Of a DNA stretch of 64,000 bases, positions 37,738 through 64,000 are shown piece after piece. Where the stretch lies: the NCBI RefSeq assembly GCF_046105845.1, contig NZ_CP151004.1; one strand, 5' to 3'. This DNA comes from Escherichia coli. GTDB taxonomy: Bacteria > Pseudomonadota > Gammaproteobacteria > Enterobacterales > Enterobacteriaceae. A program made the position numbers and the translations under genes. Numbering within the stretch: position 1 is the first letter of the stretch; every line of letters begins with the position of its first letter. The notes beneath the pieces were generated by a model. That model made no database searches and was not told the DNA's origin. It was given only the letters and a program-made list of their open reading frames with translations.

Positions 37738-37759
37738 CCTGATCGTCAGTATTCTCCGT

Positions 37760-43666: not shown

Positions 43667-43673
43667 TTGAATA

Positions 43674-43699: not shown

Positions 43700-43708
43700 A
43701 TCCGCTAA

Positions 43709-44182: not shown

Positions 44183-44335
44183 GTTATTAACCTCCTAAAG
44201 CCTGGCGATAACACGATAATTTGCAAATCAGATATTTCCAATATCAGCATTTGTTATCAATTTATTCTGCGCTAAGGCAACTGCCTGATAAGGTGTTAGA
44301 GTTATAAAACCCTTCGCATAAAGGAGTTGTACACC

Positions 44336-45758: not shown

Positions 45759-45822
45759 AAAGACTCCTTTTAAAAAATGGCAAGGTCACATATCCCTTAT
45801 TGGTACATAAATCCCCCGACGT

Positions 45823-47627: not shown

Positions 47628-47630
47628 CGG

Positions 47631-49236: not shown

Positions 49237-50951
49237 TTTCCTGTGGGTTGCAGAATTAAGGTCAGTTGAGTGAATAAGTGGATATCGGCATACAGTGCGA
49301 AGAAGCGGTGCAGCAGTTCACCAAACAGTGTGATATCACCTTCTCCGGCAAAGCCGTTACTGTCCAGCGTTACCTGAATATCCACGCCACGCAGCAGAAA
49401 GCCTCTTTCAAAACGCTGTATCAGGCTGTGCTGAACGTCGACAATCGCCTCCAGACGACGGCGGTTCATCTCGCTTTCGGTCCAGTCGTACAACGCCAGC
49501 GTGCCGCGCACAATTTCGGCGTTATCCATCATCGATAAAAAGTTAGAACCAAGGTGGCTGAGCACCCGCCAGTGGAAGCGGTCACGCGCCGGGGGATAGC
49601 AGGGCTGCGTCGGGGCGCACAGGTTGCGCACCCGCAGGACGTTCTGTGAGGCGTGGACTGGCGTATCGAGTAGCGTGCTCTGTAAAGCTTTACGGGGAAG
49701 CTGCCCGTTAGTGCCGGTCAGACTTAAGGACAGAGTTTCATCCTCCAGCATCCGGTCAGAATCAAACGCATCGCCGCCCAGAATCAGCCAGGTATCATGC
49801 AGGCCGGAAGGGCCGCGCTTAACCCGCGTATGGTAATAACGTTCCGGCGCATCGTGGCGCAGCATCCCGCCCCGGTGACGAAAGCTGGAGAATGGCACAT
49901 ACGCCTGACTGCCGGTATGGCGCGAAGAAATAATGTTGTCGACGGAATAAATCTCGGTATGCCCGTCCTGAATTCGCATCGGGCGCAGCAGAAATTCGTT
50001 TTCCAGTGGCGAAAGGTGTAACGGATCGGCTTCCAGCGGGAACAGGTTGATAACCGGCACGCAGTGCAGGCGGAGATTGTCGGTATTAAACGGCAAATCA
50101 TGAGGCCAGCTTTCCGCCAGCACCACGTCAATCTCAAAGCCGGTTATCCCTTCCGGCCAGATGACGTTCTCCAGCCCGTTGAGTGCCACAAACATAAACT
50201 TCTCGCGGAAGGTGAAATACTCCAGCAGCAACTGGTAGCCGCTGAACGCCGACTCGCCTTTTGGCCAGAGCCTGTCATTATCCTCAAAGCCCAACGGGGA
50301 AAAGTGTGCGTCAAGCGTCCGGCGATCCTGCCCCGGCAGACGCAACCAGAACTGCTGCGTACCAAGCGTTAAAGCCCGGTGCAGCGCACAGGCCACCGGA
50401 CTGTCGGCATTGAGATAGAGCGGCAGGCGGGATAAATCGATCTGTGACCAGTCACCGACCAGCGGGCCGCATTCAAAGCGCAGACGAATAACCGAACGTC
50501 CGTCCGGTTCATATTGCAATGACACGTCCGGCAACGCCAGCGGATGCAGCGTGATATCCCGCGTGGCGCTGTAGAAACAGCGGGTTCTGCGCTCGCCAAC
50601 AGGGCGCGACAATACCTGAAAATCGCTCAGCGTTTCGCTCTGCTTCATCTGCCGGTGATCTGTCGACAGTTCAACCACGGAAAGTGACGGGATAGTTCGC
50701 AGGTAGTGAGGCCACAGCAGGCTGACCAGCCCTTCAGTCAGCTCCGGCAGATCGTCGTCCAGCTTCTCGCGCAGGCGGCCCATTAAAAAAGCAAAGCCTT
50801 CGAACAGGCGTTCCACATAGGGATCGCGTGCGCCGGGTTTATCAAGATTGAGCATCGCGGCGCGGTCGGGGTAAGCCTGCGCAAATTCTTTCCCCGCTTC
50901 ACGCAGGTAGCGCATTTCGGCTTCGTAGTAGCGTTGGGTTAAGTCGTCCAT
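49191..50951 (-). CDS. tssF: T6SS baseplate protein TssF
   Basis: About 590 aa; start placed at the ATG of MDDLTQRYYEAEMRYL (the ORF track begins at an upstream TTG, 50990); tssF-tssG pairing. Confidence 0.75.
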   Translation of the reverse strand: MDDLTQRYYEAEMRYLREAGKEFAQAYPDRAAMLNLDKPGARDPYVERLFEGFAFLMGRLREKLDDDLPELTEGLVSLLWPHYLRTIPSLSVVELSTDHRQMKQSETLSDFQVLSRPVGERRTRCFYSATRDITLHPLALPDVSLQYEPDGRSVIRLRFECGPLVGDWSQIDLSRLPLYLNADSPVACALHRALTLGTQQFWLRLPGQDRRTLDAHFSPLGFEDNDRLWPKGESAFSGYQLLLEYFTFREKFMFVALNGLENVIWPEGITGFEIDVVLAESWPHDLPFNTDNLRLHCVPVINLFPLEADPLHLSPLENEFLLRPMRIQDGHTEIYSVDNIISSRHTGSQAYVPFSSFRHRGGMLRHDAPERYYHTRVKRGPSGLHDTWLILGGDAFDSDRMLEDETLSLSLTGTNGQLPRKALQSTLLDTPVHASQNVLRVRNLCAPTQPCYPPARDRFHWRVLSHLGSNFLSMMDNAEIVRGTLALYDWTESEMNRRRLEAIVDVQHSLIQRFERGFLLRGVDIQVTLDSNGFAGEGDITLFGELLHRFFALYADIHLFTQLTLILQPTGKCLQWTEHHSQRVPG

Positions 50952-51026
50952 CGGAGGATTTATCTTTCCTTTTATTGAAATTAATACCAACGAGTAGTGA
51001 GATTAGAATTTTTTATTTTCAGAATC

Positions 51027-51431
51027 CTAAGGACATATAGATGGATCATTTATTTCAAAAGAAAAATCGGACTCCATACTAGATGAGGATTTTTTCAATA
51101 AAGAGGAGATATGATATCCAGATAAAGTTTTAGAATTGTTACCATCAGATATCAAAATACTAAGTTCAGAAACAATATTTACAGGGTTTTTATTAAAAAC
51201 ATCTGACTCTCTACCTGTGTAAATAAAGTATACAATTGGCTTCCGCTCTCCGATATCAAGATGAAAATTATCTCTTACTTTACCATCATAATGTGTTGAA
51301 TTATTGACCGTCGAAATGTTAATAGATACTTTGCATGTATTTACCATGACAATGGAACAAGAATAGAATGGTTGAGATAAACATCCAGCACACAGCGTAC
51401 ATAATAAAAAAAAGAATATTAATCTAGTCAT
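51027..51431 (-). CDS. lipoprotein-like secreted protein; candidate immunity protein for the upstream PAAR toxin
   Basis: 134 aa; N-terminal signal peptide with Cys cluster (MTRLIFFFLLCTLCAGC...); start overlaps the stop of the PAAR-HExxH gene by 8 nt; AT-rich. Confidence 0.4.
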   Translation of the reverse strand: MTRLIFFFLLCTLCAGCLSQPFYSCSIVMVNTCKVSINISTVNNSTHYDGKVRDNFHLDIGERKPIVYFIYTGRESDVFNKNPVNIVSELSILISDGNNSKTLSGYHISSLLKKSSSSMESDFSFEINDPSICP

Positions 51432-52863
51432 GAAATTTCACCCGAGATAACCATATCATTGCACATACATCGTTTTCGACAGCAACCGACCTTGCATATA
51501 GATCACTGGTGTATATATGCCCATTATAATATTTCATTAAATCTATCTCGCCAGTTCCTGGATAAACTGAATGAGGCAGTGCATATTGAGGTGGTACAAG
51601 ATTAGAGGTCCCTTTATGCTCCCATGAATACGTATTCCCACCGTAACTTTTTAATATCATATGACCAGTCTCATGGGCTACATCAAGTTTAAATTCTAAT
51701 CCAGCCTTAAAAACAGGATCCGCGCCTTTCTGATACCCACGGCCATATTCATAATACCCCCTATTGAAATAAATGTTCATACGTCCCATAAAAGCACTAG
51801 ACCTGACGCTTTCTAGATCTTGCTCCTCAATTAAATCAAAAGAATCCATGGCTGGATCAATATTTATTGATACAGAGATATTTACATTATATTTACCGTG
51901 CGGAGTAGTAATATTATTGCCAATTCCGGGATTCCTCATTCCATTTCGTGCCCAATAATACTCTATTCCATCCTTGGCAAGTTGCTTTAATTTTTCAAAC
52001 CCTACAGGTGCAATACGATCATCTTTATGACTCACACCATCATCTTCAAATTCTACTCGCCAACTGACATCAACTATTTTTTGATTCTTGTCTACTTTTA
52101 CATCAATCCAATCTTCCTCATTCGCAGAAGTTTTCAATGGATAATCAACTTTTATCATCATATCACCACATAAAGCAATCAGTCTTACGAGTAGTGATTT
52201 GCTTTTTAGCTTAGTTGTATCCAGTATGTCTTGATTACTGTAGCCATCCCATTGCCAGGCATGCTCTCCCTTATCAAAATATTTACCGGTCTGCTGTTCA
52301 CTATAAATCACTTCATTACCATCAAGCACTTCCAGAGAAAGCGCTTCAGCCTCATCGCCTTTATTTGTGATGGTAAAATCTATTTTTTCTGTATTCTTCG
52401 TACTACCACCGCTAATCATTTCTTTATAATCAGGTATATTCAATGGCGTCAGTATCTTATTACCTGATAATTTAATTCTGTAATCCAGTTTTACATCATC
52501 TGAGGATGAATCAGAACCAGAAGTCAGATCCTTTTTCGCCGACTGCGCATGTTGTTCCGCTTCACTTCCCCCGTCATCCGTCTCATACACATCATCCATC
52601 ATTGACGCAATAAATCGCGCCTTACACGGGCAACTGCTCTGACTGTCCAGCGATCCCGCCATCAGCCTGCCGTGAATATCCGTTTCCGGCACGCCGCCGA
52701 CGATAATAAACATCCCCGAATGTTTACCGCAGGTCACTCTGTCCATATCCCGCGCCTGCGGGATACCCATGATCGTATGGTCGTCCGCCCCTTCAATAAT
52801 TTTGCCGCCGCAGGTGGTCTTATCGCCCCTGACCAGAAAATAGCCTCTTCCCATCGTCATCAC
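51424..52863 (-). CDS. PAAR-domain protein with C-terminal HExxH (putative zinc metallopeptidase-like) toxin domain
   Basis: 479 aa. The N-terminal ~90 aa fit the PAAR pattern (RGDKTTCGGKIIEGADDHTIMGIPQARDMDRVTCGKHSGMFIIVGG); then an acidic/Ser-rich linker; the C-terminal region contains HETGH. Start overlaps the tssA stop. Confidence 0.65.
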   Translation of the reverse strand: MMTMGRGYFLVRGDKTTCGGKIIEGADDHTIMGIPQARDMDRVTCGKHSGMFIIVGGVPETDIHGRLMAGSLDSQSSCPCKARFIASMMDDVYETDDGGSEAEQHAQSAKKDLTSGSDSSSDDVKLDYRIKLSGNKILTPLNIPDYKEMISGGSTKNTEKIDFTITNKGDEAEALSLEVLDGNEVIYSEQQTGKYFDKGEHAWQWDGYSNQDILDTTKLKSKSLLVRLIALCGDMMIKVDYPLKTSANEEDWIDVKVDKNQKIVDVSWRVEFEDDGVSHKDDRIAPVGFEKLKQLAKDGIEYYWARNGMRNPGIGNNITTPHGKYNVNISVSINIDPAMDSFDLIEEQDLESVRSSAFMGRMNIYFNRGYYEYGRGYQKGADPVFKAGLEFKLDVAHETGHMILKSYGGNTYSWEHKGTSNLVPPQYALPHSVYPGTGEIDLMKYYNGHIYTSDLYARSVAVENDVCAMIWLSRVKFHD

Positions 52864-54497
52864 TCCTTATGCTGCGTATCACACAGTACCGCTGCCCGTA
52901 CCGGATCGATTGTCACCAGCGTTCCCAGCAGGATTTCCATTTTTCGGTTCAGCAGGGCTTTATCCGCATAGCGGTGCGCCCGCAGGCGCAGCAGTTTCAG
53001 TTGCCGGGCTTTTACCTCAAACAGCAGTTCCGGCTCCCACTGCGTCAGCGTTATTCCCTGTGCGGCGGTATCCAGTTCTTCCAGCAGCAGGAGTGCCATC
53101 TCGTTTTTACCGTACTGTTCCGCCACCCGCGCCATCAGCAGCCGCAATAACAGGCGCTGTCGTGCCGTGGTGATGCCCGGACGGGTCTGTATCCAGCCCA
53201 GCGCCGCTTCCACGCCCTGACTGTCTGCCATCTCCAGTGCTTCCGGCTCCAGCGCCAGTACGTCATTTGTGGCGTCGTCTGTCGGTACAGCGGCTTTCCC
53301 CGCAAGCCATGCGCCGTCTTCCCGCATCATGACCTGCTGCGCTATCCAGTTGCGCGTCACCTCATCGGCGAACGGTGTGCCGTCGTTCCATGCCAGATTT
53401 TCCAGCCCCGGCAGGCGTTCCAGCAGTAACGCCAAGTCCTGACGGATAACGGCTGTCCACCTGTCCCACGGTACGCCCGCCTTAGTCAGCGCCTGATGCA
53501 GATACCACTGAATGTCCAGCCAGAAATGGCTGACGCCGGTGCTGAACATCAGGTCGGCCTGCTCCAGCAGTTCCGTCCAGTTCTGCTGGGCATACAGCCG
53601 CTTAAGCTGATTGCGTGACTCGGTGCGCGGCGGGGCCAGCCGGGTTTTGCCGTCCACATCCGGCGGCAGTTCATGCACCGTGTCCCAGCGCAGGGTTTTC
53701 ATCAGCCGGTGCGCCGAAAGCCAGCCCTGCGGCTGTTCATTCAGATAACGGGCCAGCACTTTCGCCTGGTCGAGCAGGTCACGCCCGGAGGTGATGGTCT
53801 GTACCTGTGGCGCATCCACCGGGGATGACGGTGCAGGAACGCTGCTGCTGTTTTGCGGCACCACTGCGTTCATCCCTCCCGACTGCGCCAGACGCGATTC
53901 CAGCGCGTTAATCAGCGGCATCAGGGAGGGGGAATGCTGGTCTTCGGGCCATGCAGTGAAGGAAACCGTCAACTGACTGAGGGCAGCAACAATGTTCGCA
54001 AAATCCTCTTTTGCCACTTCCGGGTAGCGGGCAAGGCTGTCGAGCATCTTTTCCCCCGCCAGCCACTCCAGCGCCATTTTCCGGCTGGCCGGTCGCGAGG
54101 GCAGCAGTTGCGTACCGAAGCGTTCCACCAGTCCGGTCAGCAGCGCCAGTCCTTCCGCCAGTCCGCGCTCACCGTCGCGGTGCAGTCGCGCCCAGATGTA
54201 GTAAGTGGCGATGCGCACGTCTTTTGCCTGCGTCAGCAGCAGGGATTCGGCAAGCTGGCAGATGAGGTCCGTATCCGCGCCGGAAAGTTTGTTCATCTCG
54301 TCGCGGATACGCAGAAAATCGTCGTGGTAGCCGGGGTCTTCCCCGACCGGCGTATCTGTCGTCACCGGCAGCAGCCATGTCTGCCACAGTGCCGCCTGTG
54401 CTCGCGCCACATCCAGTGCATCCCGGTCGGCAAAACAGCTACGGGTCAGCTTTTGCAACAGTTCACTCATCGGCGTCTTCCCCGTATTCTTCCGCAT
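52860..54497 (-). CDS. tssA: T6SS protein TssA
   Basis: 545 aa; ImpA_N signature (PVGEDPGYHDDFLRIRDEMNKL); immediately downstream of tssM with overlap. Confidence 0.75.
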   Translation of the reverse strand: MRKNTGKTPMSELLQKLTRSCFADRDALDVARAQAALWQTWLLPVTTDTPVGEDPGYHDDFLRIRDEMNKLSGADTDLICQLAESLLLTQAKDVRIATYYIWARLHRDGERGLAEGLALLTGLVERFGTQLLPSRPASRKMALEWLAGEKMLDSLARYPEVAKEDFANIVAALSQLTVSFTAWPEDQHSPSLMPLINALESRLAQSGGMNAVVPQNSSSVPAPSSPVDAPQVQTITSGRDLLDQAKVLARYLNEQPQGWLSAHRLMKTLRWDTVHELPPDVDGKTRLAPPRTESRNQLKRLYAQQNWTELLEQADLMFSTGVSHFWLDIQWYLHQALTKAGVPWDRWTAVIRQDLALLLERLPGLENLAWNDGTPFADEVTRNWIAQQVMMREDGAWLAGKAAVPTDDATNDVLALEPEALEMADSQGVEAALGWIQTRPGITTARQRLLLRLLMARVAEQYGKNEMALLLLEELDTAAQGITLTQWEPELLFEVKARQLKLLRLRAHRYADKALLNRKMEILLGTLVTIDPVRAAVLCDTQHKE

Positions 54498-57400
54498 CCT
54501 TCATACTCCTGCCGGTCAGAAATACCTGTCCCGGCAGGCGGAAATTTTTCAGCTCCAGCAGCGCCATCGGCCCTTTGCCCTGTTCAACCCGCAGCAGGTA
54601 ATTCAGCGGCAGGCCGTCCTGCGCTTTCCACACCACTTTAAAGGTACTGCTGTCCACCGGTGTCACCTGCGCCTGTTCCAGCAGACGAATTAGGCTCCAG
54701 CTTCCCCGGTAATCCGCCAGTATACGTTCCATCGCCTGCGTGCTGGTCCAGCTCAGCGATGCGCCGGGTTGCCACTGTTCATCCGGCCAGTTAAAACGCT
54801 GCCAGCGTTCTTTCTGGTTGAAATACTCCAGTTCCTGCCCGTCAATCACCAGATGTGTTTTCATCACGTCTCGGGCCGGTTTTGCCCGCAGTTCAAAATG
54901 TATTCCGGCATCGCCGCTGGCAAAGGCGGTGTCAGCCACGTCACGCAGGCGGTTCAGGGCGCGAATAAAGTCCGGGTTGACCGTCAGCCCCTGCGTGTTC
55001 ATGGCGTCCGCCACCCAGTAGCGGCCTTCACGTTTCAGAACGCCGGAAAGGTTGGCGGCAATAAACTGGTTGATGCGCCCGTCATCGCGCAGATACTGCG
55101 CCAGCAGGGGGAGGGAAGCATCGTTCTGTGAGGCTTTGAACGGGTAGCGACCAGCGAAGTCCTGATTCCAGTGGCTGACAATCGCCCGCTGCCACTGGCG
55201 GTTCAGGCTGTCCGCCGCAGGCGTCAGCACCTGCCGCCACGACTGCTCCACCGGGCGGACGAACAGCGCCTGACCGAAGCCACTCCATTCCTCGCCCAGA
55301 CTGGCGGCGATTAACCGTCCGTAGTCGCGGGTGTCGGTGAGGTCAACGGTTTTGCCCTGCAAGACTGTCTGCGCCAGTTGTTGGGTCATCTCCTGTGGGT
55401 CGGGGGCGTTGGTCACCTGTTGCAGTTTGAGGCGCACGCGGGTGACGCGGGTCAGATACGTTTGCAGGCTGAGTTGCGTATCGCCACCACCGCCTCCGGC
55501 CTTATCGCCCAGCAAACGCAGCAGCGGCGCGAAGGTTTTATCCAGTGGCCCGACAGGCACGTCGTCTTCACGGGATTGCTGCGGCGTTTTCTCCTTGCCG
55601 TTAAACAGTTCCTGTGCCGATTTCGCCAGCGAGTCCGACAGGCCACGGTTTTCCCTGCCAGCCGCCGCCTGCCAGGCGAGGGTGTCCGTCAGCGCAATCA
55701 GCGGCGACTGACGGGCATCGGCCATCAGCGTCAGCTGGTCGAGAATGCCGGAGAGTGAGTCTTCCTTTTTCCAGCGAATGCTGTTGAGAAACGCCAGCCA
55801 GCTTCCGGCAAAGTCGGTAAAGTAGCGTGAGGTGAGACGGTTACGCAGCGTATCCGGCGAGATATCCGCAGAGGTATCCTGCTGGCGGTCGCTGAGTACC
55901 CAGTCGATTTCCTCGCGCCGCGCCGTCACCACCTGCTCGATGGCTTCCCTGACCTGTCCTTCCCACGCCTGACGGGTGAACATCCCCGGCACCGTCTGTT
56001 CCGTACTGAAAAGAGATTCGGTGAGCGTATCCCCGGTCATGTCCGCCAGCGTCATATCGGCGTAGTTGCGGGACACCTGTTGCAGTACGTTCTGGTAGAG
56101 GGTGTTTTCGGCATTGCGCACACCAATCTGGCGCAGCAGGATTTTACGCACCGCGCCGGTCAGTTCCGGTGGCGGCGAGGTTTTCCACTGCGGGTGTTCC
56201 GGCAGGTTCGCCATCCAGAAGGTCAGCAGTGACGGCAACACGCTCTGACGCACACCTTCCGGGATATTTTCATAGCGCAGGCCGTCCGCCATCAGCGTGG
56301 TACTGAAAAAGGCAGCGTCGGCCTTTTCCGGGCGGGAAGTCATCAGCAATGCCTTAAGCTGCTTATAGCGTTGTTCACCAGTGGCGGTACGCTGAGGACT
56401 GTTGGGCGGCAGCGCGACAAAGGCGTTCAGTTGCTGTTGCAGATGGTCAACGGCCACGTCGCGCACCAGCCGGTTTGCCGCCTGTGCATAGCCAGGAAAG
56501 GCGGCGGCGAGCAGTTGCTGGTTACGTTCAAGGCCAAAACGCTGATACCACGGCGCACCTTCGCGGATACGATATTGCAGGCGCTCCAGTTCGCCCTGCA
56601 GGGTATGCAGCGCCACCAGTTGTTCAGACAGCGGCAGCCGGGTATCAAGCGCTCGTGCAGTCTGGATGCTGGTTTCCTGAACAAGCGCGCGGTTGGCGAA
56701 GAAAGAGGTCGTCATTCCGGCCCCCCATATCGCCAGCATGCAGATGCCGCTTATCAGCGCGGCGCGTAGCCACGGAAAGCCCACTGTACGCCCCCGTGCG
56801 TTATCGCCGGTCACGCCCGCCCAGACCGGTGACGGCAGCCACGCATGAGGTGCGGCCTCCGGTACGGCGGTAAGCGGCGGGCTGAACATCAGACCGCGCA
56901 GGCGCAGGGAAGAGAATGCGCCGCCTGCCAGCAGCGGTTTCAGGACGGTCTGCCAGTGAGCGATACCCCGCTCTGCAAGGGTATGAGCCAGACGCAGCAG
57001 GAAATCATGGCGGTTATCGGTCAGCAGTTGCGACATGCCCTGTTCCGTCAGCGGCAGGGTTTGTGCTTCCAGCATTACAGCCAGTTGTTCCGGGGGACAG
57101 CGTTCCGGCAGCAGGCAGCCGACGCTTTGCAGAGGGCGTCCGGTCTGATAATCACCGTTGTCACAGACCTGCCACAAATAGAGTGGGGCCTGAAAACCGA
57201 GTCGCTTACTGCCGTTTATCAGTTCGCGCCAGCCTTTGTCGAGTTGCGCTGTCTGGCGGCTCTGTTCTTCTGTCAGCGCCCAGATGATGCCATCCAGCGG
57301 ACGGCTGCGACGCAGTTTTTTTAAGGCGGTCAGCAGTGTGACATCAGGCTCCGCTGATGGCCTGCCGCCATATATCAGCACCGTGTGGTCGCCCTCCAGC

Positions 57401-57852
57401 CAGTGTTGCCCGGTCAGCCCCGGCGCGATGGCTTCTGCCTGTTCAGGCTCGCCGGTCACCTGCAGCAGGCGGACTTTACGCCGCCAGAACGGACCGTAGC
57501 GGTCGCGCAGGAAGGCGGCGAGTTCCACCATTGCCGGATGACGGCTGTCGGCTTTCTTTGTCGTCACCGCCCGATAGTCATCCCCGGCGGCAAGCTGTCT
57601 GCGGAGTTCAAAGTTCTGTACGGCAGCGTGGCGGTTCAGCAGATGATAAACCCCCATGATAATCAAAAAGACCACGCCTGCGGCAATCACGCCCGCCATC
57701 CAGTACATCTGCTGCGGGCTGCCCGGCTCGACGCCCAGCAATGCCGGTTTACGGTGAATGAGCGTACAAAGTGCAACCACGACAGCCACGGTCATGACGA
57801 TTACTGGCCCTGAGAGCGAACGGGGCCGGAGACGGCTTAATCCCGGAACCAC
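54463..57852 (-). CDS. tssM: T6SS membrane-complex protein TssM (IcmF family)
   Basis: About 1130 aa from a GTG start at 57852-57850, 8 nt after an AGGAGG RBS and overlapping the upstream stop by 1 nt (alternative ATG at 57798; the ORF track extends to 58113). Two N-terminal TM helices, a third TM around residue 430, large C-terminal domain. No Walker A seen by eye. Confidence 0.8.
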   Translation of the reverse strand: MVPGLSRLRPRSLSGPVIVMTVAVVVALCTLIHRKPALLGVEPGSPQQMYWMAGVIAAGVVFLIIMGVYHLLNRHAAVQNFELRRQLAAGDDYRAVTTKKADSRHPAMVELAAFLRDRYGPFWRRKVRLLQVTGEPEQAEAIAPGLTGQHWLEGDHTVLIYGGRPSAEPDVTLLTALKKLRRSRPLDGIIWALTEEQSRQTAQLDKGWRELINGSKRLGFQAPLYLWQVCDNGDYQTGRPLQSVGCLLPERCPPEQLAVMLEAQTLPLTEQGMSQLLTDNRHDFLLRLAHTLAERGIAHWQTVLKPLLAGGAFSSLRLRGLMFSPPLTAVPEAAPHAWLPSPVWAGVTGDNARGRTVGFPWLRAALISGICMLAIWGAGMTTSFFANRALVQETSIQTARALDTRLPLSEQLVALHTLQGELERLQYRIREGAPWYQRFGLERNQQLLAAAFPGYAQAANRLVRDVAVDHLQQQLNAFVALPPNSPQRTATGEQRYKQLKALLMTSRPEKADAAFFSTTLMADGLRYENIPEGVRQSVLPSLLTFWMANLPEHPQWKTSPPPELTGAVRKILLRQIGVRNAENTLYQNVLQQVSRNYADMTLADMTGDTLTESLFSTEQTVPGMFTRQAWEGQVREAIEQVVTARREEIDWVLSDRQQDTSADISPDTLRNRLTSRYFTDFAGSWLAFLNSIRWKKEDSLSGILDQLTLMADARQSPLIALTDTLAWQAAAGRENRGLSDSLAKSAQELFNGKEKTPQQSREDDVPVGPLDKTFAPLLRLLGDKAGGGGGDTQLSLQTYLTRVTRVRLKLQQVTNAPDPQEMTQQLAQTVLQGKTVDLTDTRDYGRLIAASLGEEWSGFGQALFVRPVEQSWRQVLTPAADSLNRQWQRAIVSHWNQDFAGRYPFKASQNDASLPLLAQYLRDDGRINQFIAANLSGVLKREGRYWVADAMNTQGLTVNPDFIRALNRLRDVADTAFASGDAGIHFELRAKPARDVMKTHLVIDGQELEYFNQKERWQRFNWPDEQWQPGASLSWTSTQAMERILADYRGSWSLIRLLEQAQVTPVDSSTFKVVWKAQDGLPLNYLLRVEQGKGPMALLELKNFRLPGQVFLTGRSMKDAEEYGEDADE

Positions 57853-59066
57853 TATGATGCCTCCTGCGGTAAAACGAACGGCGACACCACGGTCGCCCAT
57901 GAATAATGTCCACCCTGAACGCCGCTGAGCGTCAGTTGGGGTTGTTGTAAATGCACTGACGCCAGCGCCGCAGCGGCGACGGACAGCCACGGCGCAGCCG
58001 GGCCGGAGCGCCCCAGAAAGGCATCCAGCTCGTACATCAGGGCTTCCTGAGCAAACGGCTGGTTCAGGCTTAACAACGCGGCACGCTGTTCCCTGTCCAG
58101 TTCGGCAGTCCACATGCCGGATATTGCATCTGGCTGCACCGGCATCCAGTCCAGCGCCTGTGCAATGCCTGACACCATCATCTCTGTATCAGTGATACGT
58201 TCAGGACGATGCAGCAGGGCCAGCGGCGTCAGCGCGGTTTGCGTCAACCGGTTTGCCAGCAACAGCGCGGTGGCGGATTCTGCCGTCCGTTCCGGGTTCT
58301 TCGGTTCAAGTCGTACGGAAATCACCAGCAGTACGGCCTTTTCCTGAATAAAGTTGTCCAGCCAGTCGTCCACGGCGGCCAGCCCCGGCTCCGGGGCAGA
58401 AAACAGACGGGCTTCCGGGAGTCCGGCTTTTTGCCATTCGTCCTGCCAGATAGCCATAACCGTTGACTCAGAAAGCGACGTACTGGTTTCTAAAAGCACG
58501 TTGATATGAAAATCATCGGGTAGCAGCGTCAGTTGCAGCCTGATATCGCTGAACAGACGGGAAAAAACTTCGGATAGACGTCCGGTAACCGGTTTATTGG
58601 TTAATACAGGGATGACACTGCGACGCACAGTATCTTCTCCGCGCAAATCAGCGTAAGTATTCAACACCTGCTGACGCGCCAGAAATGCTGTTGTAGTTTC
58701 TGCAACGGAATCACCATTCAGCGCGGTTTGTACGGAAAAACTGAGTATCTGCAACGCCCGTCGTCCCCGTCGCGTTTCCTGCAAAATCACCTCTTCCCGG
58801 CGCTTATTCCAGGCATCAGCCCGAATGTACTGCGTGATAAAAAACAGCCAGCGAACTGAAGCAACCAGCGACCAGATAAAGGCAGGCACACCACAGGCCA
58901 GCCCCCAGAAATACGGGCCGTTTTTTGCCAGTTCATCGCTGGCAAATAATGAAGTCAGGGCCACACCTGTGGACAGCATCAGTAATAAGGCTGACAGCCA
59001 TTTAATGCGGGCTGGCGGTGTGGGATAGGGTTCTGCGTCGGGAATGGCATGGAGTCGAACAGGCAT
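57852..59066 (-). CDS. inner-membrane protein of unknown function, translationally coupled to tssM
   Basis: 404 aa; two N-terminal TM helices (WLSALLLMLSTGVALTSLF; FWGLACGVPAFIWSLVASVRWLFFI) then a ~300-aa soluble domain with no motif I recognise; GC-rich like the core tss genes. Confidence 0.4.
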   Translation of the reverse strand: MPVRLHAIPDAEPYPTPPARIKWLSALLLMLSTGVALTSLFASDELAKNGPYFWGLACGVPAFIWSLVASVRWLFFITQYIRADAWNKRREEVILQETRRGRRALQILSFSVQTALNGDSVAETTTAFLARQQVLNTYADLRGEDTVRRSVIPVLTNKPVTGRLSEVFSRLFSDIRLQLTLLPDDFHINVLLETSTSLSESTVMAIWQDEWQKAGLPEARLFSAPEPGLAAVDDWLDNFIQEKAVLLVISVRLEPKNPERTAESATALLLANRLTQTALTPLALLHRPERITDTEMMVSGIAQALDWMPVQPDAISGMWTAELDREQRAALLSLNQPFAQEALMYELDAFLGRSGPAAPWLSVAAAALASVHLQQPQLTLSGVQGGHYSWATVVSPFVLPQEAS

Positions 59067-59126
59067 AAAAATAATCCGCTATTAAATTAGGTATATGATG
59101 TGGTTATATCCCGCTTTTCGATTAAA

Positions 59127-59504
59127 TTACTCTGATACATTTATGGTATATATTTTGCCAAACCGTCCTCTGCCACCACCACCTATGGAGAATCCTCCGA
59201 TTTCAATGACTATCGCCCCTTTTACAACAGGGATACCCTGAACAATAAGGCAACTATTTTGGTCTGGCTCAAAAACATCAATAGTCAAACCCGAATTCTC
59301 AGGCCTGAAATCTTTCAATGGAAAAAAAGGTACAGGCCCAACTCCTCCTGAAATCTCGATTTTTGCATAGTAACTCTGACCTAATTTTGCATCAGGCAAG
59401 GAGTCTGGGGAAACAGTAGTTTTTGGGATGATTAGCATATGTAAACATCCAGTTAGTGATATTGATAATGAACATATGAGTAAAAATTGAATTGTCTTTT
59501 TCAT
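59127..59504 (-). CDS. small lipoprotein; candidate immunity protein
   Basis: 125 aa; lipoprotein signal MKKTIQFLLICSLSISLTGC; ATGA start/stop overlap with the upstream gene; Gly-rich C-terminus; AT-rich. Confidence 0.45.
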   Translation of the reverse strand: MKKTIQFLLICSLSISLTGCLHMLIIPKTTVSPDSLPDAKLGQSYYAKIEISGGVGPVPFFPLKDFRPENSGLTIDVFEPDQNSCLIVQGIPVVKGAIVIEIGGFSIGGGGRGRFGKIYTINVSE

Positions 59505-60361
59505 GACTTGTTAGTGTCAATGTCAATATAAACCTGATTGGATCTAATGTTAAATTTATCTTCAAGTTTTTCACCCGACATATCAAGATTTAGCAGTAAT
59601 TTTTTAATTCCATCGTCGTTATTATCACCTAAGCATGAATTATCTGGTTCGAGGTGGCTATTATCTTTATTAAAGAAGCATATGTATTTCTGGCTCAATA
59701 GATTAAACATTTTTTTATAGATGCGCTGCCGAACAAGCCATTGTTCATTGACAAACGGATATTCAAGAGTACCTACCTTGTAACGCCGTAAGCCCGGCGG
59801 AAAAGCATATAAAGATTTATTCAAATAAATACTGACAACATACTTTTCCCCGGATTTAATCTCGAACCAGTTTCCAGAATCAGGATCGTCATCATAGCCA
59901 TTACAAAATGAACCCAGAAAATCCAGTCTTGAGTTATCAGTAATAATAAGAAAGTCTTGTTTACATGATGAGGTATATGCCATGTCTTGTTTATTTTTTT
60001 TAAAAAAAGTCAGAAAAATATCAGGAAGATAGAATGAATGGTGGCTTTTATTTTCAAATTCTATAGTCATTACAACTTCTTTTTTAGATTTTTGCTCTGC
60101 AAATAAACGGATAAACATGTTGATTTCAGACTGTAGCTTTTTATTTTCTTTATCATCCAATAAGTATCCTGGTGAGAGGAAAACATACTTCTCATCATCA
60201 CGTAATGGATAAAAAAAAGGTGAGTCAGTTACTATTCTGCTTTCCCCATAACCATAACCATACTTCTTAAAAACCAGTAAGTCATCGGCAATTGAATTAA
60301 GTGAAAACAGCAATAAGAAACAAAAAATTGCATAATTAATAAATTTACTAAATGTATGCAA
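59501..60361 (-). CDS. secreted protein of unknown function; candidate immunity protein
   Basis: Start placed at the TTG 7 nt after GAAGGAGG, giving the signal peptide MHTFSKFINYAIFCFLLLFSLNSIA; the ORF track's longer version starts at 60397. Very AT-rich. Confidence 0.45.
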   Translation of the reverse strand: MHTFSKFINYAIFCFLLLFSLNSIADDLLVFKKYGYGYGESRIVTDSPFFYPLRDDEKYVFLSPGYLLDDKENKKLQSEINMFIRLFAEQKSKKEVVMTIEFENKSHHSFYLPDIFLTFFKKNKQDMAYTSSCKQDFLIITDNSRLDFLGSFCNGYDDDPDSGNWFEIKSGEKYVVSIYLNKSLYAFPPGLRRYKVGTLEYPFVNEQWLVRQRIYKKMFNLLSQKYICFFNKDNSHLEPDNSCLGDNNDDGIKKLLLNLDMSGEKLEDKFNIRSNQVYIDIDTNKS

Positions 60362-60448
60362 AATAACCTCCTTCAATAAAAAATCAAAAAAAAACACAAG
60401 TTACATTTTACTCTAAATATAACTTGATTGATTAACAATTAAAGAAGA

Positions 60449-61252
60449 TTACTCGGGTGGTGGTGGGGGATTATTATCAACTATAATTTTTAAATCCTTA
60501 CTCATGTCCTCTTCCACAGATTTTTTTATATCTATTAAAATCTCTTCATTCAGAGCTATCTGAAAATATTTCTCAACATTATAAGCACTTCTGAAAACGG
60601 CCTGATTGTGTTGACTAACCATTGTTTTTGCAGCAGCCAAATGAGCATCACCACTCATAAATGCCGGTTTCCCTTGCGCATTCATATCATGTGTGCTCAT
60701 TCCACCACCAATACCACCTTTGCCGGTCCTACAAAAATGAGACATTTCATGACACAGCGTTGAAACCTGAGAATCAACACCACATAATGGTTTGTCCTTA
60801 AACTTTCCAGCTATAAAAATATGATAATCTTTATCAATAAATTCATTAACTCTGGCAGTGAAATTCCCACATACCGTATTATTAATATAATAGCAAGTTA
60901 ACACTCCATCCTTATCATATCTGAACATTTGATTATGAATTGTTTTAATCCTCTTGATACCATCCTGCATTATTAACAATGCAGTCTGTTTAGTTTCATC
61001 ATCATCTCCTATCAATTCATCACCTTTGGTGCCAAATATTTTATAAAACTCGCTTATCTCTTTTTCCTTCCCCCCCTTATTCCAACCCTCAAGAGAATGT
61101 TCGCGAATCTCAAGAACTTTTTCTTGGGCTTTGTGTGCTCGTAATATCATCTCTTTAAATTTATTAGTAATAACAACTTCAGCGACACAAATCTCTACAG
61201 TAGCTGGAGCTGGAGCTGGCTTGCCGTTTGATATTTTATTTCCCATATACAT
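60449..61252 (-). CDS. VgrG-adjacent protein with HExxH motif; candidate T6SS effector (putative metallopeptidase-like)
   Basis: 267 aa starting 6 nt after the vgrG stop (alternative ATG at 61246 has better RBS spacing). No signal peptide; contains CHEMSH followed by a Gly-rich segment; Pro-rich termini (PAPAPA, PPPPPE); AT-rich. Confidence 0.5.
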   Translation of the reverse strand: MYMGNKISNGKPAPAPATVEICVAEVVITNKFKEMILRAHKAQEKVLEIREHSLEGWNKGGKEKEISEFYKIFGTKGDELIGDDDETKQTALLIMQDGIKRIKTIHNQMFRYDKDGVLTCYYINNTVCGNFTARVNEFIDKDYHIFIAGKFKDKPLCGVDSQVSTLCHEMSHFCRTGKGGIGGGMSTHDMNAQGKPAFMSGDAHLAAAKTMVSQHNQAVFRSAYNVEKYFQIALNEEILIDIKKSVEEDMSKDLKIIVDNNPPPPPE

Positions 61253-61258
61253 TCCCTG

Positions 61259-63760
61259 CTAGTCGATCAGAACTTCAGGAAGTATTAATTCAACCTTTAT
61301 TTCCTGATCATTGTCTCTATTAAAGTTTTCTGTGTTTCCGTTATCATCAGTTACTCCCTCCTTTTGCGTCCCTTCAGCAAAGTATGCAATATATTTTGTG
61401 TTCGCATAAGGTATGCCATAATCATCCACAAAGTGAAACTGAAGGTTATATTCCCCGCTCTCAATCAACGGAAATGCCATTAGTTCCGGCGTCAGCTTCG
61501 CCTTCGGCTTACGACCGTAATATCCCGCCTTAACGTTATATTCTCCCGGCGTTCCAGCTTCTATCCCGCAGGCATCCAGCCGGATATAGCTGCCACCGCC
61601 GTTTAGGGTGATTTTCTTCTTCGCGGTGATCTTGATCTCATCTTCCGTACTGGTGATCACTATCGATTTCTGAGCCAACAGTTCCATCAGATCGTTCTGT
61701 GCCTGTACCGAGATCGCCCCCTTGTTGGCAAACAGCTTGATACCCGCTTTGCGCACAAACACGCTCAACGCCTGACCCACACCGATAAACATATTCTTCA
61801 CAACACCGATATCAGCGTGATTTCCTGCGTTCGCGATCAGGTTTTTCGATGCCGCCAGTTGCAGGTGCTCTCCGCTGGCGATCGCCACGCCTTTGGGTGC
61901 GCTTAGCAGGATCGCAGCCTGCGTCAGATCTTTTACACTCTGCTGCAACAGCGCTATCTGTGATGACAGATCTGCCGGATCGGCATTCGCCGTCTGCGCA
62001 TCAGTGGACAGCGACTTCATCTGTGACTGTGCGCCATCCAGTATTGCCATCGCCGGAGCCATTTCGCGCACCTGACCCTGCGCCTTGTCCTGCGCGTCGG
62101 CGCTGATAAAGATGCCTTTCTTTGCCCGCACCGCGCCCCACAGATCGGTACGCAGTTCAAAGCCTTCCCCGCGCTGCTGTTTCCCGGCGTCCACCAGATG
62201 ACCGAGGTTTAGCTGGCTCTTGCCGCCGTACTCGGTACTGACCTTGATATGCTCTTTGCCGCGCTCGTCATCCAGCCGGATTTTGTTGTTTGCCGGGGTG
62301 CGCAGCACGTTACGCTTGTAGTTCTGGATGGTCACATGGTCGGTGTGCGCCGAGTCGTGCTTTACCCCGGCGATATACGGTCGGTCCGGGTTGCCTTCCT
62401 CAAAGGCGATACTGACTTCCGTTCCCGCCAGCAGCGGCAGGTGCAGGCCGTAGGTGTCTCCCGCATACGGGCGCGACTGGCGCACCCACAGGCTTTCATA
62501 ACCCGGTTTCCACGTCTCGCGGTCAAAGTCGAGGTTGACCCGGTAGCGCCCGTCCTTGTCGATATGGGCATAGATATCGTTCTTCACCGTGCTGGTGACC
62601 CGCGCCGGGAGCGTTCCGGCCATGACCGGGCGGGGGATAAACGCCGGGCGGTAGCCGTAGCGTTCTGAGTACGGGATAGCGGTAAACGTCAGTTCATAGC
62701 TGCGGTCACGCGCCGCGCTGGCCGTCACGCCGGTAATCAGTACGCCCTTGCGGAACACCGCTGGCGCGTCGTCGCCCTGAACCCTGATTTCCAGCCCCGG
62801 CATCAGCAATGAACTGGTGCTCTGGCCTTTGAGAATGGCCTGTTCATTCAGGTAGCGTTCGTGGCGGATACGGGCATAAAACGCGCCGCTTTCCGCTGAT
62901 TCCTGGTCGCCTTTTTGCAGGAAGTTGTCGGCGTAGTGATAGGCTTCGCCGTAGGTGGTGTTATCGCCCCCGGTGGCGTCATGCTGCTCTGTCATCATCT
63001 CTGCTGTGGCGGTGCGGTAGTTGTAGTCCCGCGTGGTGACGCTTTTCTCCACCACGCTGTATGCCGTGTTCAGCCCCCATACGGCTTCCGTTTCACCATC
63101 AAACAGCCCTGAAGTATGGCGAAGCGGCAGCGTCAGTCCGCGCTCGTAGCCGCTCTGGTCGTCGTAAAACTCGACAACCTCAATTTTCAGCCGGGCGTCG
63201 GTGGCAAAGCGGAACCAGATACCCACTTCCGACAGCAGGCGTGAAATAAACGTCAGGTCGTCCTCACCGTACTGCATCACCTGTTCACGGGACGGGTATT
63301 CGCTTTTGAGGTTAAACACGAAGTCCTGACCGCGCATCTGATGCCGCTCGCGCAGGATTTTTTCGACGATTTGCGGCACCGTCAGATTCTGGTAGATGGC
63401 GTTCTGGCGGCTGCGGGCCAGCAGTGCCATACGGGGTTCAAGGCGCACTTCGTAACGGGCTTCATCCTGTGACGAGGAGAGATGTTTAAAGCCAGTAATG
63501 ACCCCGTACAGGGTGCGCAGGGGGGCCTGCACCGGCATTCCCTGTACGGGCGGTGCCGTCAGGCTGAATGCGCCGTCCTGCATCAGCACCGACTCCGGCT
63601 CGATGGCTTTATCGGTACTGGTAAACTTAATGTCGTAGCGGAAGGGGGCGCTGAGTTGCTCACTACCCGTAAAGGTCAGCACGTCCACCGGGCTTTTCAG
63701 GCTGCGAATTTTGAGCTTGTGGTGCGCGTGGTTAAAGTTTAGGGCAGGAATATTCATCAT
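61259..63760 (-). CDS. vgrG: T6SS spike protein VgrG with C-terminal extension
   Basis: 833 aa; gp27/gp5-like VgrG body, beta-helical region, then an extra ~100-aa C-terminal segment (...ELMAFPLIESGEYNLQFHFVDDYGIPYANTKYIAYFAEG...). Confidence 0.85.
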   Translation of the reverse strand: MMNIPALNFNHAHHKLKIRSLKSPVDVLTFTGSEQLSAPFRYDIKFTSTDKAIEPESVLMQDGAFSLTAPPVQGMPVQAPLRTLYGVITGFKHLSSSQDEARYEVRLEPRMALLARSRQNAIYQNLTVPQIVEKILRERHQMRGQDFVFNLKSEYPSREQVMQYGEDDLTFISRLLSEVGIWFRFATDARLKIEVVEFYDDQSGYERGLTLPLRHTSGLFDGETEAVWGLNTAYSVVEKSVTTRDYNYRTATAEMMTEQHDATGGDNTTYGEAYHYADNFLQKGDQESAESGAFYARIRHERYLNEQAILKGQSTSSLLMPGLEIRVQGDDAPAVFRKGVLITGVTASAARDRSYELTFTAIPYSERYGYRPAFIPRPVMAGTLPARVTSTVKNDIYAHIDKDGRYRVNLDFDRETWKPGYESLWVRQSRPYAGDTYGLHLPLLAGTEVSIAFEEGNPDRPYIAGVKHDSAHTDHVTIQNYKRNVLRTPANNKIRLDDERGKEHIKVSTEYGGKSQLNLGHLVDAGKQQRGEGFELRTDLWGAVRAKKGIFISADAQDKAQGQVREMAPAMAILDGAQSQMKSLSTDAQTANADPADLSSQIALLQQSVKDLTQAAILLSAPKGVAIASGEHLQLAASKNLIANAGNHADIGVVKNMFIGVGQALSVFVRKAGIKLFANKGAISVQAQNDLMELLAQKSIVITSTEDEIKITAKKKITLNGGGSYIRLDACGIEAGTPGEYNVKAGYYGRKPKAKLTPELMAFPLIESGEYNLQFHFVDDYGIPYANTKYIAYFAEGTQKEGVTDDNGNTENFNRDNDQEIKVELILPEVLID

Positions 63761-63804
63761 TATTTTCCTGTATAGATAGAAATATTTTCGTCATTAAAAA
63801 TAAA

Positions 63805-64000
63805 TCAACAATGAAACTCAATGAACTCTCGCCATTGTGGTGTCGCATTATTTTTCACTAAGAAATCGTTTCTTTCATCAGGTGATAGACTGTGCCAGAA
63901 CGGAGACCAAATACTCTCCCACCAGAACTCAACTTCTCCTTGTAAGCTACCGAAAGTATCGGGTTCCAACTCAGGAAAAACATCCCATGGCACAGGTTCT
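63805..64000 (-). CDS. hypothetical Trp-rich protein, probably 5'-truncated by the window end
   Basis: Minus-strand frame is open to the window edge; C-terminal sequence ...FWWESIWSPFWHSLSPDERNDFLVKNNATPQWREFIEFHC; no recognisable family. Confidence 0.3.
   Translation of the reverse strand, partial: EPVPWDVFPELEPDTFGSLQGEVEFWWESIWSPFWHSLSPDERNDFLVKNNATPQWREFIEFHC

Follow-up and report, generated by a model that had tools for sequence, protein, structure and literature searches.

The 404-residue protein encoded at positions 57852..59066 of the window, the whole 64,000-nucleotide stretch of Escherichia coli DNA analysed here, is the product of a real, widely conserved and unstudied T6SS gene. 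It is distantly related to Tla3, a T6SS lipase adaptor, and is anchored in the membrane. The gene starts with ATG and, like every feature located below, lies on the minus strand. By orthology it belongs to the KPHS_23130 family of T6SS system proteins: RefSeq names its E. coli orthologues either 'KPHS_23130 family T6SS system protein' or 'hypothetical protein', and one that carries the family name, WP_001145246.1, shows 95% protein identity, the same position and the same junction sequence.

The junction with tssM

The TAG stop codon of the gene (57854..57852) has its last base, 57852, in common with the in-frame GTG (57852..57850) of tssM (54463..57852; 1129 residues from this GTG), which encodes a TssM of the 'ImcF-related' subclass. 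An AGGAGG Shine–Dalgarno sequence for tssM (57860..57865) lies within the last codons of the 404-residue gene, 7 nt 5′ of the GTG. We infer the GTG at 57852 as the tssM start; the PGAP start of the E. coli tssM orthologue is ~56 nt further downstream, and similarity between TssM proteins (tblastn) starts within 1–8 residues of the overlapping start. A listed 1216-residue ORF from the GTG at 58113 is a mechanical over-extension of tssM.

The stop/start junction, AGGAGGCATCATAGTG, is identical in E. coli L001, in Entomohabitans and in a Citrobacter MAG. At a further 28 loci, drawn from many genera, there is a 4-nt overlap between homologue and tssM (GTGA, ATGA or TTGA), with AGGAG placed 8–10 nt 5′ of the tssM start. 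Since the junction is kept in other taxa and the 4-nt overlap recurs at these 28 loci, the arrangement is not a chance one, and TssM and the 404-residue protein very probably undergo coupled translation via the overlapping stop and start codons and the internal Shine–Dalgarno sequence. An earlier sequence-only reading had described an ORF that stops 1 nt into the tssM GTG with AGGAGG in its 3′ end, as is confirmed at 57852, and had proposed co-translation with tssM, which the overlap conserved across loci makes very probable.

Distribution and rate of evolution

The family comprises 539 cluster representatives (E ≤ 1e-3) from Enterobacterales, Pseudomonas and Burkholderiales, the Enterobacterales members including E. 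coli, Klebsiella, Yersinia pestis, Serratia, Enterobacter and Pantoea. Among 5426 complete E. coli genomes, 995 carry the gene itself, at 90–96% nucleotide identity. Orthologous T6SS clusters of three orders have a member of the family. The related loci compared here were gathered with a 13-sequence alignment, and form a sample biased to Enterobacterales and Pseudomonas.

The G+C content of the gene is 0.56, compared with 0.61 for tssM, 0.61 for tssA, 0.56 for vgrG and 0.31–0.41 for the neighbouring cargo genes. The earlier description of this composition as core-like holds in that the gene goes with the T6SS cluster and not with the AT-rich cargo, but it does not extend to an invariant core gene. 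In individual loci compared between genera, homologues of the 404-residue protein are ~31–33% identical, whereas the corresponding values are ~45–48% for TssM, 54–55% for TssA and 53–64% for VgrG; the gene evolves faster than all three.

A literature search returned no experimental study of any family member. A search on EC042_4538 gave no mention, and KPHS_23130 and KPHS_23120 appeared only in gene lists (a virulence-gene list in the case of KPHS_23130). Searches on DUF2875, on Tla3 structure and ketosynthase or thiolase, and on genes upstream of tssM likewise found no functional study of the family.

Membrane anchor and topology

Hydropathy analysis (Kyte–Doolittle, 19-residue windows above 1.4) finds hydrophobic segments at residues 19–44 and 52–78 only. 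These correspond to transmembrane (TM) helix 1, residues ~23–43 (58938..59000), and TM helix 2, residues ~53–78 (58833..58910), the latter with conserved F53, W54, P61, W65 and R72. An AF2 model built from a 125-sequence alignment (pLDDT 95, pTM 0.90), which supersedes a mediocre one from 13 sequences (pLDDT 71.5), places helices at 20–41 and, in one unbroken run, at 50–101, so that TM2 continues as a juxtamembrane cytoplasmic helix (residues 79–101; 58764..58832) with a W86/R90/GRRxL motif. Ahead of TM1 is a conserved cytoplasmic N-tail, MPVxLxxIP...P...W23, with W23 found in 120 of 125 family members, while the periplasmic loop between the two helices is ~8 residues long, weakly charged and poorly conserved. 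Lysine and arginine counts of 3.3 in the N-tail, 0.9 in the loop and 5.5 after TM2 point to an N-in/C-in topology. The predicted two-TM hairpin thus anchors the protein in the inner membrane with both termini cytoplasmic and, in the model, a long helical continuation of TM2 leads into a cytoplasmic domain of ~300 residues with a thiolase/ketosynthase fold (residues ~102–396; 57879..58763). Within the family, residues of the TM helices are as conserved as those of the soluble domain. Two N-terminal TM helices followed by a large soluble domain had been proposed from the letters alone, and hydropathy, AF2 and the lysine/arginine distribution agree on this architecture.

A Tla3-like fold with no conserved cysteine

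The top match of the model in a Foldseek search of the PDB is Tla3 (8yz3, E 5.7e-10). The same entry is the sole match of the family profile among PDB sequences (E 1.2e-6, residues 276–387), in an alignment that takes in the LHRP and LGxxGxAxPW motifs, and hhalign against Tla3_C fragments gives a probability of 94.5% (E 7e-8). Profile homology spans the C-terminal ~110 residues only. The soluble domain is a distant homologue of Tla3 with the same fold. A shallow alignment of Tla3_C fragments compared with the CFT073 member by hhalign gave nothing significant.

Standard family models pass this relationship by. Pfam returned no match for the 404-residue protein at E ≤ 10, the Tla3/DUF2875 models (PF11394, PF20995) included, and no significant family for the 125 members or the CFT073 member; Tla3_C is touched by only 2 of the 125, at E ≤ 0.1. 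NCBIfam release 20.0 holds no family for the protein even at E ≤ 1, and PHROGs gave no match. The profile check suggested with the first description of the gene therefore came out both ways, without a Pfam or NCBIfam family but with Tla3 recovered from PDB sequences by the family profile. The accompanying statement that no known accessory protein fits has to be revised, as the protein has a thiolase/ketosynthase fold, distant homology to Tla3 and an existing NCBI family name.

A TssL/DotU-like identity was rejected, as it had been in the sequence-only reading, since there is no Pfam or NCBIfam DotU/TssL match and the protein carries an N-terminal hairpin, not a single C-terminal anchor. Transporter and phage-protein readings were also rejected, and the protein is no characterised transporter or enzyme.

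Catalysis appears to have been lost. In the 125-sequence alignment, cysteine accounts for at most 16% of any column, and on this basis the domain is very probably a catalytically dead, ketosynthase-fold pseudo-enzyme. R287 is invariant within the H286-R287-P288 motif (58203..58211), which is common to the family and to Tla3 ('LHRP'); of the 125 members, 123 have P288 and 114 (91%) have H286, with leucine at the latter position in the EAEC member and phenylalanine in that of CFT073. H286, the single conserved histidine, may correspond to the first histidine of the ketosynthases (KS); no second conserved histidine or asparagine was found in the alignment. Acidic residues D233, D237, E263 and D348 are conserved. 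Comparison of the family with E. coli FabF by hhalign was not significant, the first KS strand aligning to residues 102–136, and with no conserved cysteine the reading as an active ketosynthase was rejected.

Genomic context and block exchange

The gene closes a variable spike/cargo module that is opened by vgrG (61259..63760; TIGR01646, 451 bits), and related loci show the same gene order of vgrG, cargo, (PAAR), homologue and tssM. At 47 of the 56 informative loci tssM lies directly 3′ of the homologue, and the 28 loci with a 4-nt overlap are among these. In Pseudomonas-type loci, EAEC 042 and CFT073 the homologue has a small PAAR gene immediately beside it; in some Serratia, Pantoea and Erwinia loci the PAAR gene is found between the homologue and tssM. 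Divergent members are present in the Sci-1 cluster of EAEC 042, between PAAR and TssM (EC042_4538 by position), and in CFT073, after Tli3–Tle3–PAAR, where no separate Tla3 gene is annotated from vgrG to tssM. Orphan homologues are found elsewhere: L011 has one in a vgrG island that lacks tssM, and in L012 one sits beside a PAAR gene. Related clusters have a separately annotated tssL, and no Fha, PpkA or TagF was seen among the identified neighbouring genes in the window and the related loci examined.

Divergent alleles go with different cargo: Tle1 in EAEC, Tle3 in CFT073 and a HExxH protein in the window. The window and L001, in contrast, have alleles 95% identical in amino acid sequence beside unrelated cargo (the HExxH protein versus an SLT-domain protein), so that any contact with the spike would have to involve its conserved parts, VgrG or PAAR, and not the effector. 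Remnant partial copies of the gene flank cargo replacements.

In the adjoining TssM, TIGR03348 covers only residues 361–1107 and scores 260 bits, below its cut-off of 388; the N-terminal ~360 residues have no match to this canonical model, and Pfam finds IcmF-related, IcmF_helical and IcmF_C only. All nine of the TssM proteins tested that are encoded beside a homologue belong to this subclass, with an N-terminus unmatched by TIGR03348. The first ~120 codons of tssM (57490..57852), which specify the N-tail, TM1, TM2 and linker, co-vary and are exchanged with the 404-residue gene. Between the window and CFT073, TssM identity is 21–40% up to residue ~120 and 95–100% thereafter; a second, independent mosaic in L042 breaks at the same domain boundary. 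In both, the 404-residue gene and the first ~110–130 residues of TssM, containing the TM1–TM2 hairpin, were exchanged as one block. Across 38 loci, identity of the 404-residue protein tracks that of TssM residues 1–105 (r 0.94, with a partial r of 0.79 once the periplasmic domain is taken into account), and tracks the rest of TssM far less well. As the genes are adjacent on the DNA, plain physical linkage could account for this co-inheritance.

Comparison with known systems

Tla3 (PA0259) of the Pseudomonas aeruginosa H2-T6SS is a cytoplasmic adaptor that bridges the Tle3 lipase to the C-terminal extension of VgrG2b; it dimerises and is not secreted (PMC6560169). The 404-residue family resembles Tla3 in the C-terminal LHRP and LGxxGxAxP motifs and in being encoded in a vgrG–effector–immunity module. 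However, identity is only ~12–17% and the Pfam Tla3 models miss the family. Tla3 is described as soluble and its gene goes with tle3, whereas an N-terminal TM hairpin and a juxtamembrane helix are conserved throughout the family, the family's genes adjoin tssM, and one allele accompanies different cargo. The thiolase-type fold is also common to FabF/FabB, type I and II polyketide KS domains and KS-CLF, but there is no detectable sequence relationship to these enzymes; the family lacks the conserved cysteine, has one conserved histidine and is membrane anchored, and no ACP, AT, fatty-acid or polyketide genes lie near the gene.

The PA0098-type thiolase-like proteins (IPR040771) are thiolase-superfamily accessories tied to VgrG/PAAR-like tips, and transposon inactivation of each gene of the Proteus mirabilis PA0098-type cluster abolishes killing (PMC11883445, PMC7970981). 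They resemble the 404-residue family as thiolase-superfamily proteins recruited as spike-tip accessories, but are set apart by a vgrG1b/DUF6484/DUF2169/DUF4150/armadillo-repeat neighbourhood that is not linked to tssM. The DUF4123 (Tap/Tec/Tla1), DUF1795 (Eag) and DUF2169 proteins are likewise encoded beside vgrG or PAAR and are similar in proposed role, that of a non-secreted helper joining spike or effectors to the machine; their folds are unrelated, they are described as cytoplasmic, and none is reported to be coupled to tssM. TssL/DotU and TagL are inner membrane proteins too, with a cytoplasmic domain at the base of the complex, where the 404-residue protein would also sit. TssL, however, is anchored once, at its C-terminus, and adopts a DotU fold, TagL contains a peptidoglycan-binding domain, the genes for both lie elsewhere in such clusters, and no Pfam or NCBIfam similarity of the 404-residue protein to either was found.

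Proposed role and alternatives

We tentatively favour, as a plausible reading, a lineage-specific T6SS accessory subunit, paired with the hairpin of TssM, whose Tla3-like domain serves the VgrG/PAAR spike as a platform. The hairpin of the 404-residue protein would pack against the TM1–TM2 hairpin of TssM, and such packing would place the protein at the base of the TssJLM membrane complex, on its cytoplasmic side. The Tla3-like domain would act as a docking or holding surface for the incoming VgrG–PAAR spike tip (with or without effector) during baseplate recruitment, and the protein would remain in the cell when the spike fires. The gene and the TssM hairpin appear to move with the vgrG–cargo–PAAR module, and the pair may thus match a given spike set to a membrane complex that is otherwise constant. 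In an extended form of this idea, which is possible if rather unlikely, the dead-ketosynthase subunit, paired helix to helix with the TssM hairpin, makes up with it an exchangeable specificity module, swapped together with vgrG, PAAR and cargo so that each set would bring its own receptor to the base of a TssJLM channel that otherwise stays constant. EAEC Tle1 is reported to load directly on VgrG; a VgrG–Tle1–PAAR complex was assembled heterologously from co-produced components, and the accessible part of that report makes no mention of the family protein (PMC10715212). To that extent, the family is probably not required for assembling the spike as such.

Contact with TssM could also be the whole function. 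The protein would then be a stoichiometric partner that inserts, stabilises or oligomerises a divergent TssM, with its degenerate P-loop domain, and touches neither spike nor cargo. Translational coupling and conserved adjacency to tssM, co-variation with the TssM hairpin, the conserved TM residues, confinement to the TssM subclass lacking a canonical N-terminal match and the persistence of one allele beside different cargo are all consistent with this. Yet orphan copies occur without tssM, in a vgrG island and beside PAAR, PAAR adjacency is repeated, and the sole relative detectable by sequence is an effector/VgrG adaptor. The EAEC TssJLM complex, moreover, was reportedly produced and solved from tssJLM alone, which counts against such a factor, and we hold it to be somewhat improbable. 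At the other extreme, the homology to Tla3 and the shared fold would suit a strict adaptor that loads one cognate effector on VgrG, its membrane anchor being incidental. The gene closes a vgrG–effector–immunity module, the CFT073 member sits beside Tle3/Tli3 with no other Tla3-like gene, deeply divergent alleles go with different cargo sets, and partial remnants lie beside cargo replacements. A single cognate effector is hard to reconcile, however, with the near-identical alleles of the window and L001 beside unrelated cargo; the anchor and its residues are kept family-wide, tight coupling is to tssM and not to an effector gene, and EAEC Tle1 is reported to bind VgrG with no adaptor (PMC10715212). 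This reading is unlikely.

The complete ketosynthase fold, the near-invariant His-Arg-Pro, the four conserved acidic residues and the membrane anchoring might suggest an active enzyme whose site is non-canonical, such as an acyltransferase or lipid handler acting on a component of the T6SS or on the membrane around it. We judge such an enzyme very unlikely: there is no conserved cysteine or other obvious nucleophile, H286 is replaced in the EAEC and CFT073 members, the FabF comparison was not significant, and the closest relative, Tla3, works by binding (PMC6560169). The absence of Fha, PpkA and TagF from the identified neighbours, together with a location at the cytoplasmic face beside TssM, would fit a membrane-anchored sensor acting as a gate on firing or on assembly where a cluster is without that pathway. 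Such a checkpoint is highly improbable, as the protein has no sensory or phospho-signalling domain and its periplasmic loop is only ~8 poorly conserved residues, and nothing points to regulation specifically.

Significance

Structurally, the Sci-1-type T6SS of E. coli serves as the reference for membrane complex and baseplate, and in EAEC 042 it contains an unnamed member of this family. The accessory-subunit reading is a candidate answer to how a loaded VgrG–PAAR spike and the cytoplasmic face of TssM come to be matched, and the family would make three cases in which the T6SS has recruited a thiolase-superfamily pseudo-enzyme. Block exchange explains the sharp mosaic boundary inside tssM, which is relevant to the typing and engineering of T6SS clusters. 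If the exchangeable-module reading is true, the protein would be an overlooked near-core component of the EAEC Sci-1 machine, and would define a new checkpoint between spike loading and docking to the membrane complex.

The gene and its junction with tssM

The open reading frame at 57852..59066 (minus strand) begins with ATG and encodes a 404-aa protein whose hydropathy windows exceed the threshold at residues ~19-44 and ~52-78 only. The minus-strand sequence across its junction with tssM is CAGGAGGCATCATAGTGGTT. Here the final G of the TAG stop (57854..57852) doubles as the first base of an in-frame GTG (57852..57850), at which the 1129-aa tssM frame (54463-57852, minus strand) begins, and an AGGAGG motif (57865..57860, minus strand) lies 7 nt upstream of this GTG. 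The G+C content of the gene is 0.56, compared with 0.56-0.61 for tssM, tssA and vgrG, and 0.31-0.41 for the cargo genes. The sequence-only reading had reported an ORF with two hydrophobic helices, the 1-nt stop/start overlap, AGGAGG and core-like G+C; all of these are present. Its interpretation, a two-helix membrane protein co-translated with tssM and of no placeable family, is supported in part and is sharpened by the relationship to Tla3 described below.

We infer GTG 57852..57850 as the tssM start, and PGAP places the start of the E. coli orthologue ~56 nt further downstream; the junction sequence of that annotated orthologue is identical to the window's, and the similarity between TssMs of different genera starts at most a few residues from the overlapping GTG. 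An extension of tssM to a GTG at 58113 (1216 aa, 54463-58113, minus strand), which would overlap the 404-aa gene by 261 nt in a different frame, is a mechanical artefact: the frame was opened at the first start codon following a stop.

Fold, conserved residues and topology

The family has the fold of the Pseudomonas aeruginosa T6SS effector adaptor Tla3, is homologous to it and has lost the catalytic nucleophile. An AlphaFold2 model of the 404-aa protein, built with 125 diverse sequences (pLDDT 95, pTM 0.90), consists of a helix (20-41), a short loop, a single continuous helix (50-101) and an alpha/beta domain (102-396), and its top Foldseek match is the Tla3 structure 8yz3. When the family profile is searched against the whole PDB, 8yz3 is the sole match (E 1.2e-6, residues 276-387), with an alignment that covers the LHRP and LGxxGxAxPW motifs; a fragment search matches the same region to Pfam Tla3_C of P. 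aeruginosa Tla3. Alignment of the family to Tla3_C fragments with hhalign gives a probability of 94.5% (E 7e-8), while alignment to E. coli FabF is not significant.

Tla3 is the closest known entity, but the family falls outside its Pfam membership and is not a soluble cytoplasmic adaptor linked to tle3, the trait that defines Tla3; the membrane anchor and the coupling to tssM are new features. A second thiolase-like accessory family, of PA0098 type, is tied to VgrG/PAAR-like tips (PMC11883445, PMC7970981), so a thiolase-superfamily scaffold in T6SS spike handling has precedent.

Across the 125-sequence alignment Cys reaches at most 16% in any column; the family thus lacks the catalytic cysteine by which thiolase-superfamily enzymes are defined. 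Residues W23, F53-W54, P61, W65, R72 and R90 are conserved in the N-terminal part, and D233-x-W235-L236-D237, E263, H286-R287-P288, W307, W319, D348, G352, G355 and W360 in the soluble domain; H286 is replaced by L in the member from EAEC 042 and by F in that from CFT073. Membrane anchoring is predicted: K+R counts fall from 3.3 in the N-tail to 0.9 across the 8-residue loop and rise to 5.5 beyond TM2, a distribution that points to an N-in/C-in topology and would place the large domain on the cytoplasmic face. The TM helices are conserved on a par with the soluble domain and the loop poorly so, which is unusual for a passive anchor.

Distribution and annotation

Pfam, NCBIfam r20 and PHROGs leave the 404-aa protein unrecognised. 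The E. coli orthologue is annotated as 'hypothetical protein', while the most recent records call it 'KPHS_23130 family T6SS system protein'; NCBI has given the family a name, and no functional characterisation of the family was found in the literature searched. Among 1.84 billion representatives, 539 clusters match the family profile at E<=1e-3, nearly all ~400 aa in length and aligned end to end. AFDB and genome scans place members in the Enterobacterales (Escherichia, Salmonella, Klebsiella, Yersinia pestis/pseudotuberculosis, Serratia, Pantoea, Erwinia, Enterobacter, Edwardsiella, Photorhabdus and Xenorhabdus), in Pseudomonas and in the Burkholderiales (Cupriavidus, Paraburkholderia and Burkholderia). 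Of 5426 complete E. coli genomes, 995 carry the gene in its window-type allele (90-96% nucleotide identity), whereas ~1247 E. coli genomes have the window's tssM, a gap explained at least partly by clusters that have a divergent CFT073-type block. In E24377A only a 153-nt remnant is found, fused next to tssJ.

Synteny and the partner TssM

The gene is coupled to one subclass of TssM, and its PAAR/vgrG neighbourhood recurs. Of 59 loci surveyed (57 from genome scans, two metagenomic), 56 have enough downstream sequence to be informative; tssM lies directly downstream of the homologue in 47 and within 2 kb in six, most of which have a small PAAR gene or gene remnant between. This synteny disposes of absence from orthologous T6SS clusters, which the sequence-only reading had named as counter-evidence. 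The remaining three are orphans without tssM: an integrase-flanked island with the order vgrG, two cargo genes, homologue (L011), a homologue followed by PAAR beside yejM (L012), and a truncated match covering residues 1-315, whose ~7 kb of downstream sequence lack tssM (L037). The homologue overlaps tssM by 4 nt at 28 of the 47 direct loci, with AGGAG 8-10 nt upstream, and by 1 nt in the window clade; the rest, mostly Pseudomonas, have a gap of 0-29 nt. At Pseudomonas-type loci a ~87-aa PAAR gene ends 1-2 nt ahead of the homologue.

Partial copies of the gene, at loci L035 (2878-3192), L054 (9531-9932), L064 (7001-9263) and L066 (14529-15653), include N- or C-terminal remnants that adjoin either tssM or a complete copy, as well as an interrupted copy and an E. 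coli copy truncated by an IS21-family insertion. These are consistent with repeated replacement of the cargo module, with the gene as a recombination flank.

All nine TssMs tested beside homologues (the window's and eight from other genera) match the canonical TssM model TIGR03348 no earlier than profile position ~425, with scores under its cut-off, and Pfam does not find the N-terminal ImcF domain in the partner TssM. By our reading, the expected Walker A position in the window holds VTGEPEQAEA, so the cytoplasmic P-loop domain of this lineage's TssM (codons 1-360) looks degenerate.

The gene is also exchanged as a block with the TssM hairpin. Window and CFT073 TssMs are 21-40% identical before residue ~121 and 95-100% from there, and their upstream partners are 26% identical; the exchanged N-terminal block spans ~57490-57852, with its boundary at ~codon 115-135. 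As a control, the E. coli locus L001 has a partner allele 95% identical to the window's and a TssM N-terminus 90-100% identical. A second, independent mosaic, in Citrobacter (L042) relative to Pantoea/Enterobacter/Erwinia loci, breaks at the same position, just ahead of a conserved YLRxRYGxFWRRK segment. Across 38 loci, partner identity follows that of TssM 1-105 (r 0.94, or a partial r of 0.79 after controlling for the periplasmic domain), and after the same correction for the N-terminus it has little relation to the periplasmic domain (partial r 0.12); the pairs are not independent, and partner and TssM N-terminus are physically adjacent. This is suggestive of co-adaptation, not proof.

Members in model strains

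In EAEC 042 the Sci-1 order is vgrG, tle1, tli1, tli1, PAAR, a 382-aa hypothetical, tssM, tssA. The 382-aa gene (L067 39108-40256; WP_001403985.1) lies between PAAR and tssM, overlapping tssM by 8 nt, and its product matches the family over 331 columns that include the hairpin (hhalign 98.4%, E 5e-15). The PAAR gene is EC042_4537 (PMC10715212), and EC042_4539 is cited in a paper on an anti-TssM nanobody; by position, the 382-aa gene is EC042_4538, of which no mention was found in the literature searched. In the published PAAR deletion a kanamycin cassette takes the place of the gene immediately upstream, so the 382-aa gene may deserve a check for polar effects.

The CFT073 order is vgrG, tli3, tle3, PAAR, a 477-aa hypothetical, tssM. 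The 477-aa member (L068 6912-8345; WP_000539869.1; hhalign 98.4%, E 6e-15) carries two extra C-terminal hydrophobic helices (residues ~404-460). P. aeruginosa Tle3 requires Tla3 (PMC6560169), and the annotation of the CFT073 vgrG-tli3-tle3-PAAR-tssM stretch lists no distinct Tla3-type gene.

Other genes of the cluster

Downstream of vgrG lies an AT-rich set of three minus-strand cargo genes, which probably encode an effector and immunity proteins. The first product, of 267 aa (60449-61252), combines an HExxH motif (LCHEMSHF) with a proline-rich tail; the second, of 298 aa (59501-60397), has a hydrophobic segment at its N-terminus; and the third, of 125 aa (59127-59504), carries a lipoprotein-like signal (…LTGC). 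After tssA comes a gene of 41% G+C (51424-52863, minus strand) for a PAAR-like protein of 479 aa whose C-terminal part contains HExxH (AHETGHM); with the 134-aa ORF that follows (51027-51431, minus strand) it makes up a likely PAAR-toxin/immunity pair. NCBIfam has no match for any of these five. At the cluster end, a 458-aa protein (45823-47199, minus strand) has an N-terminal TssA-like (ImpA_N) match only and a RefSeq orthologue named 'VasL domain-containing protein'; it is probably the TagA-type sheath-holding accessory protein.

The window is E. coli-like chromosome: its pepD-phoE region is 99% identical to E. coli, and the T6SS cluster (45800-64000) adjoins a conserved chromosomal block (32000-45100: fadE, lafU, dinB, yafV region) that is 97.6% identical to E. 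coli. In E. coli the nearest counterparts of the cluster (96%) lie at the metV-tRNA/argA locus, so this cluster type seems to sit at another chromosomal position in the window.

A proposed role at the membrane complex

We propose that the hairpin of the 404-aa protein pairs with TssM TM1-TM2, and that its Tla3-like domain would touch conserved regions of the VgrG-PAAR spike as the spike docks. Ketosynthases are obligate dimers. Tla3 dimerises (PMC6560169), and, speculatively, a dimer of the 404-aa protein could fit the way in which TssM/TssL are paired within the membrane complex.

The Tla3 homology might suggest binding of particular effectors, but near-identical alleles sit with unrelated cargo, and EAEC Tle1 is reported to load directly on VgrG (PMC10715212); both argue against such specificity. 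A protein acting purely in TssM assembly is a serious rival to spike contact, and the block exchange would suit it as well. Catalysis is unlikely given the missing cysteine, and a regulatory role is likewise unlikely. Contact with both TssM and the spike is the reading we favour. The family is a conserved part of a model machine that has been overlooked, and the hypothesis it yields is specific and testable.
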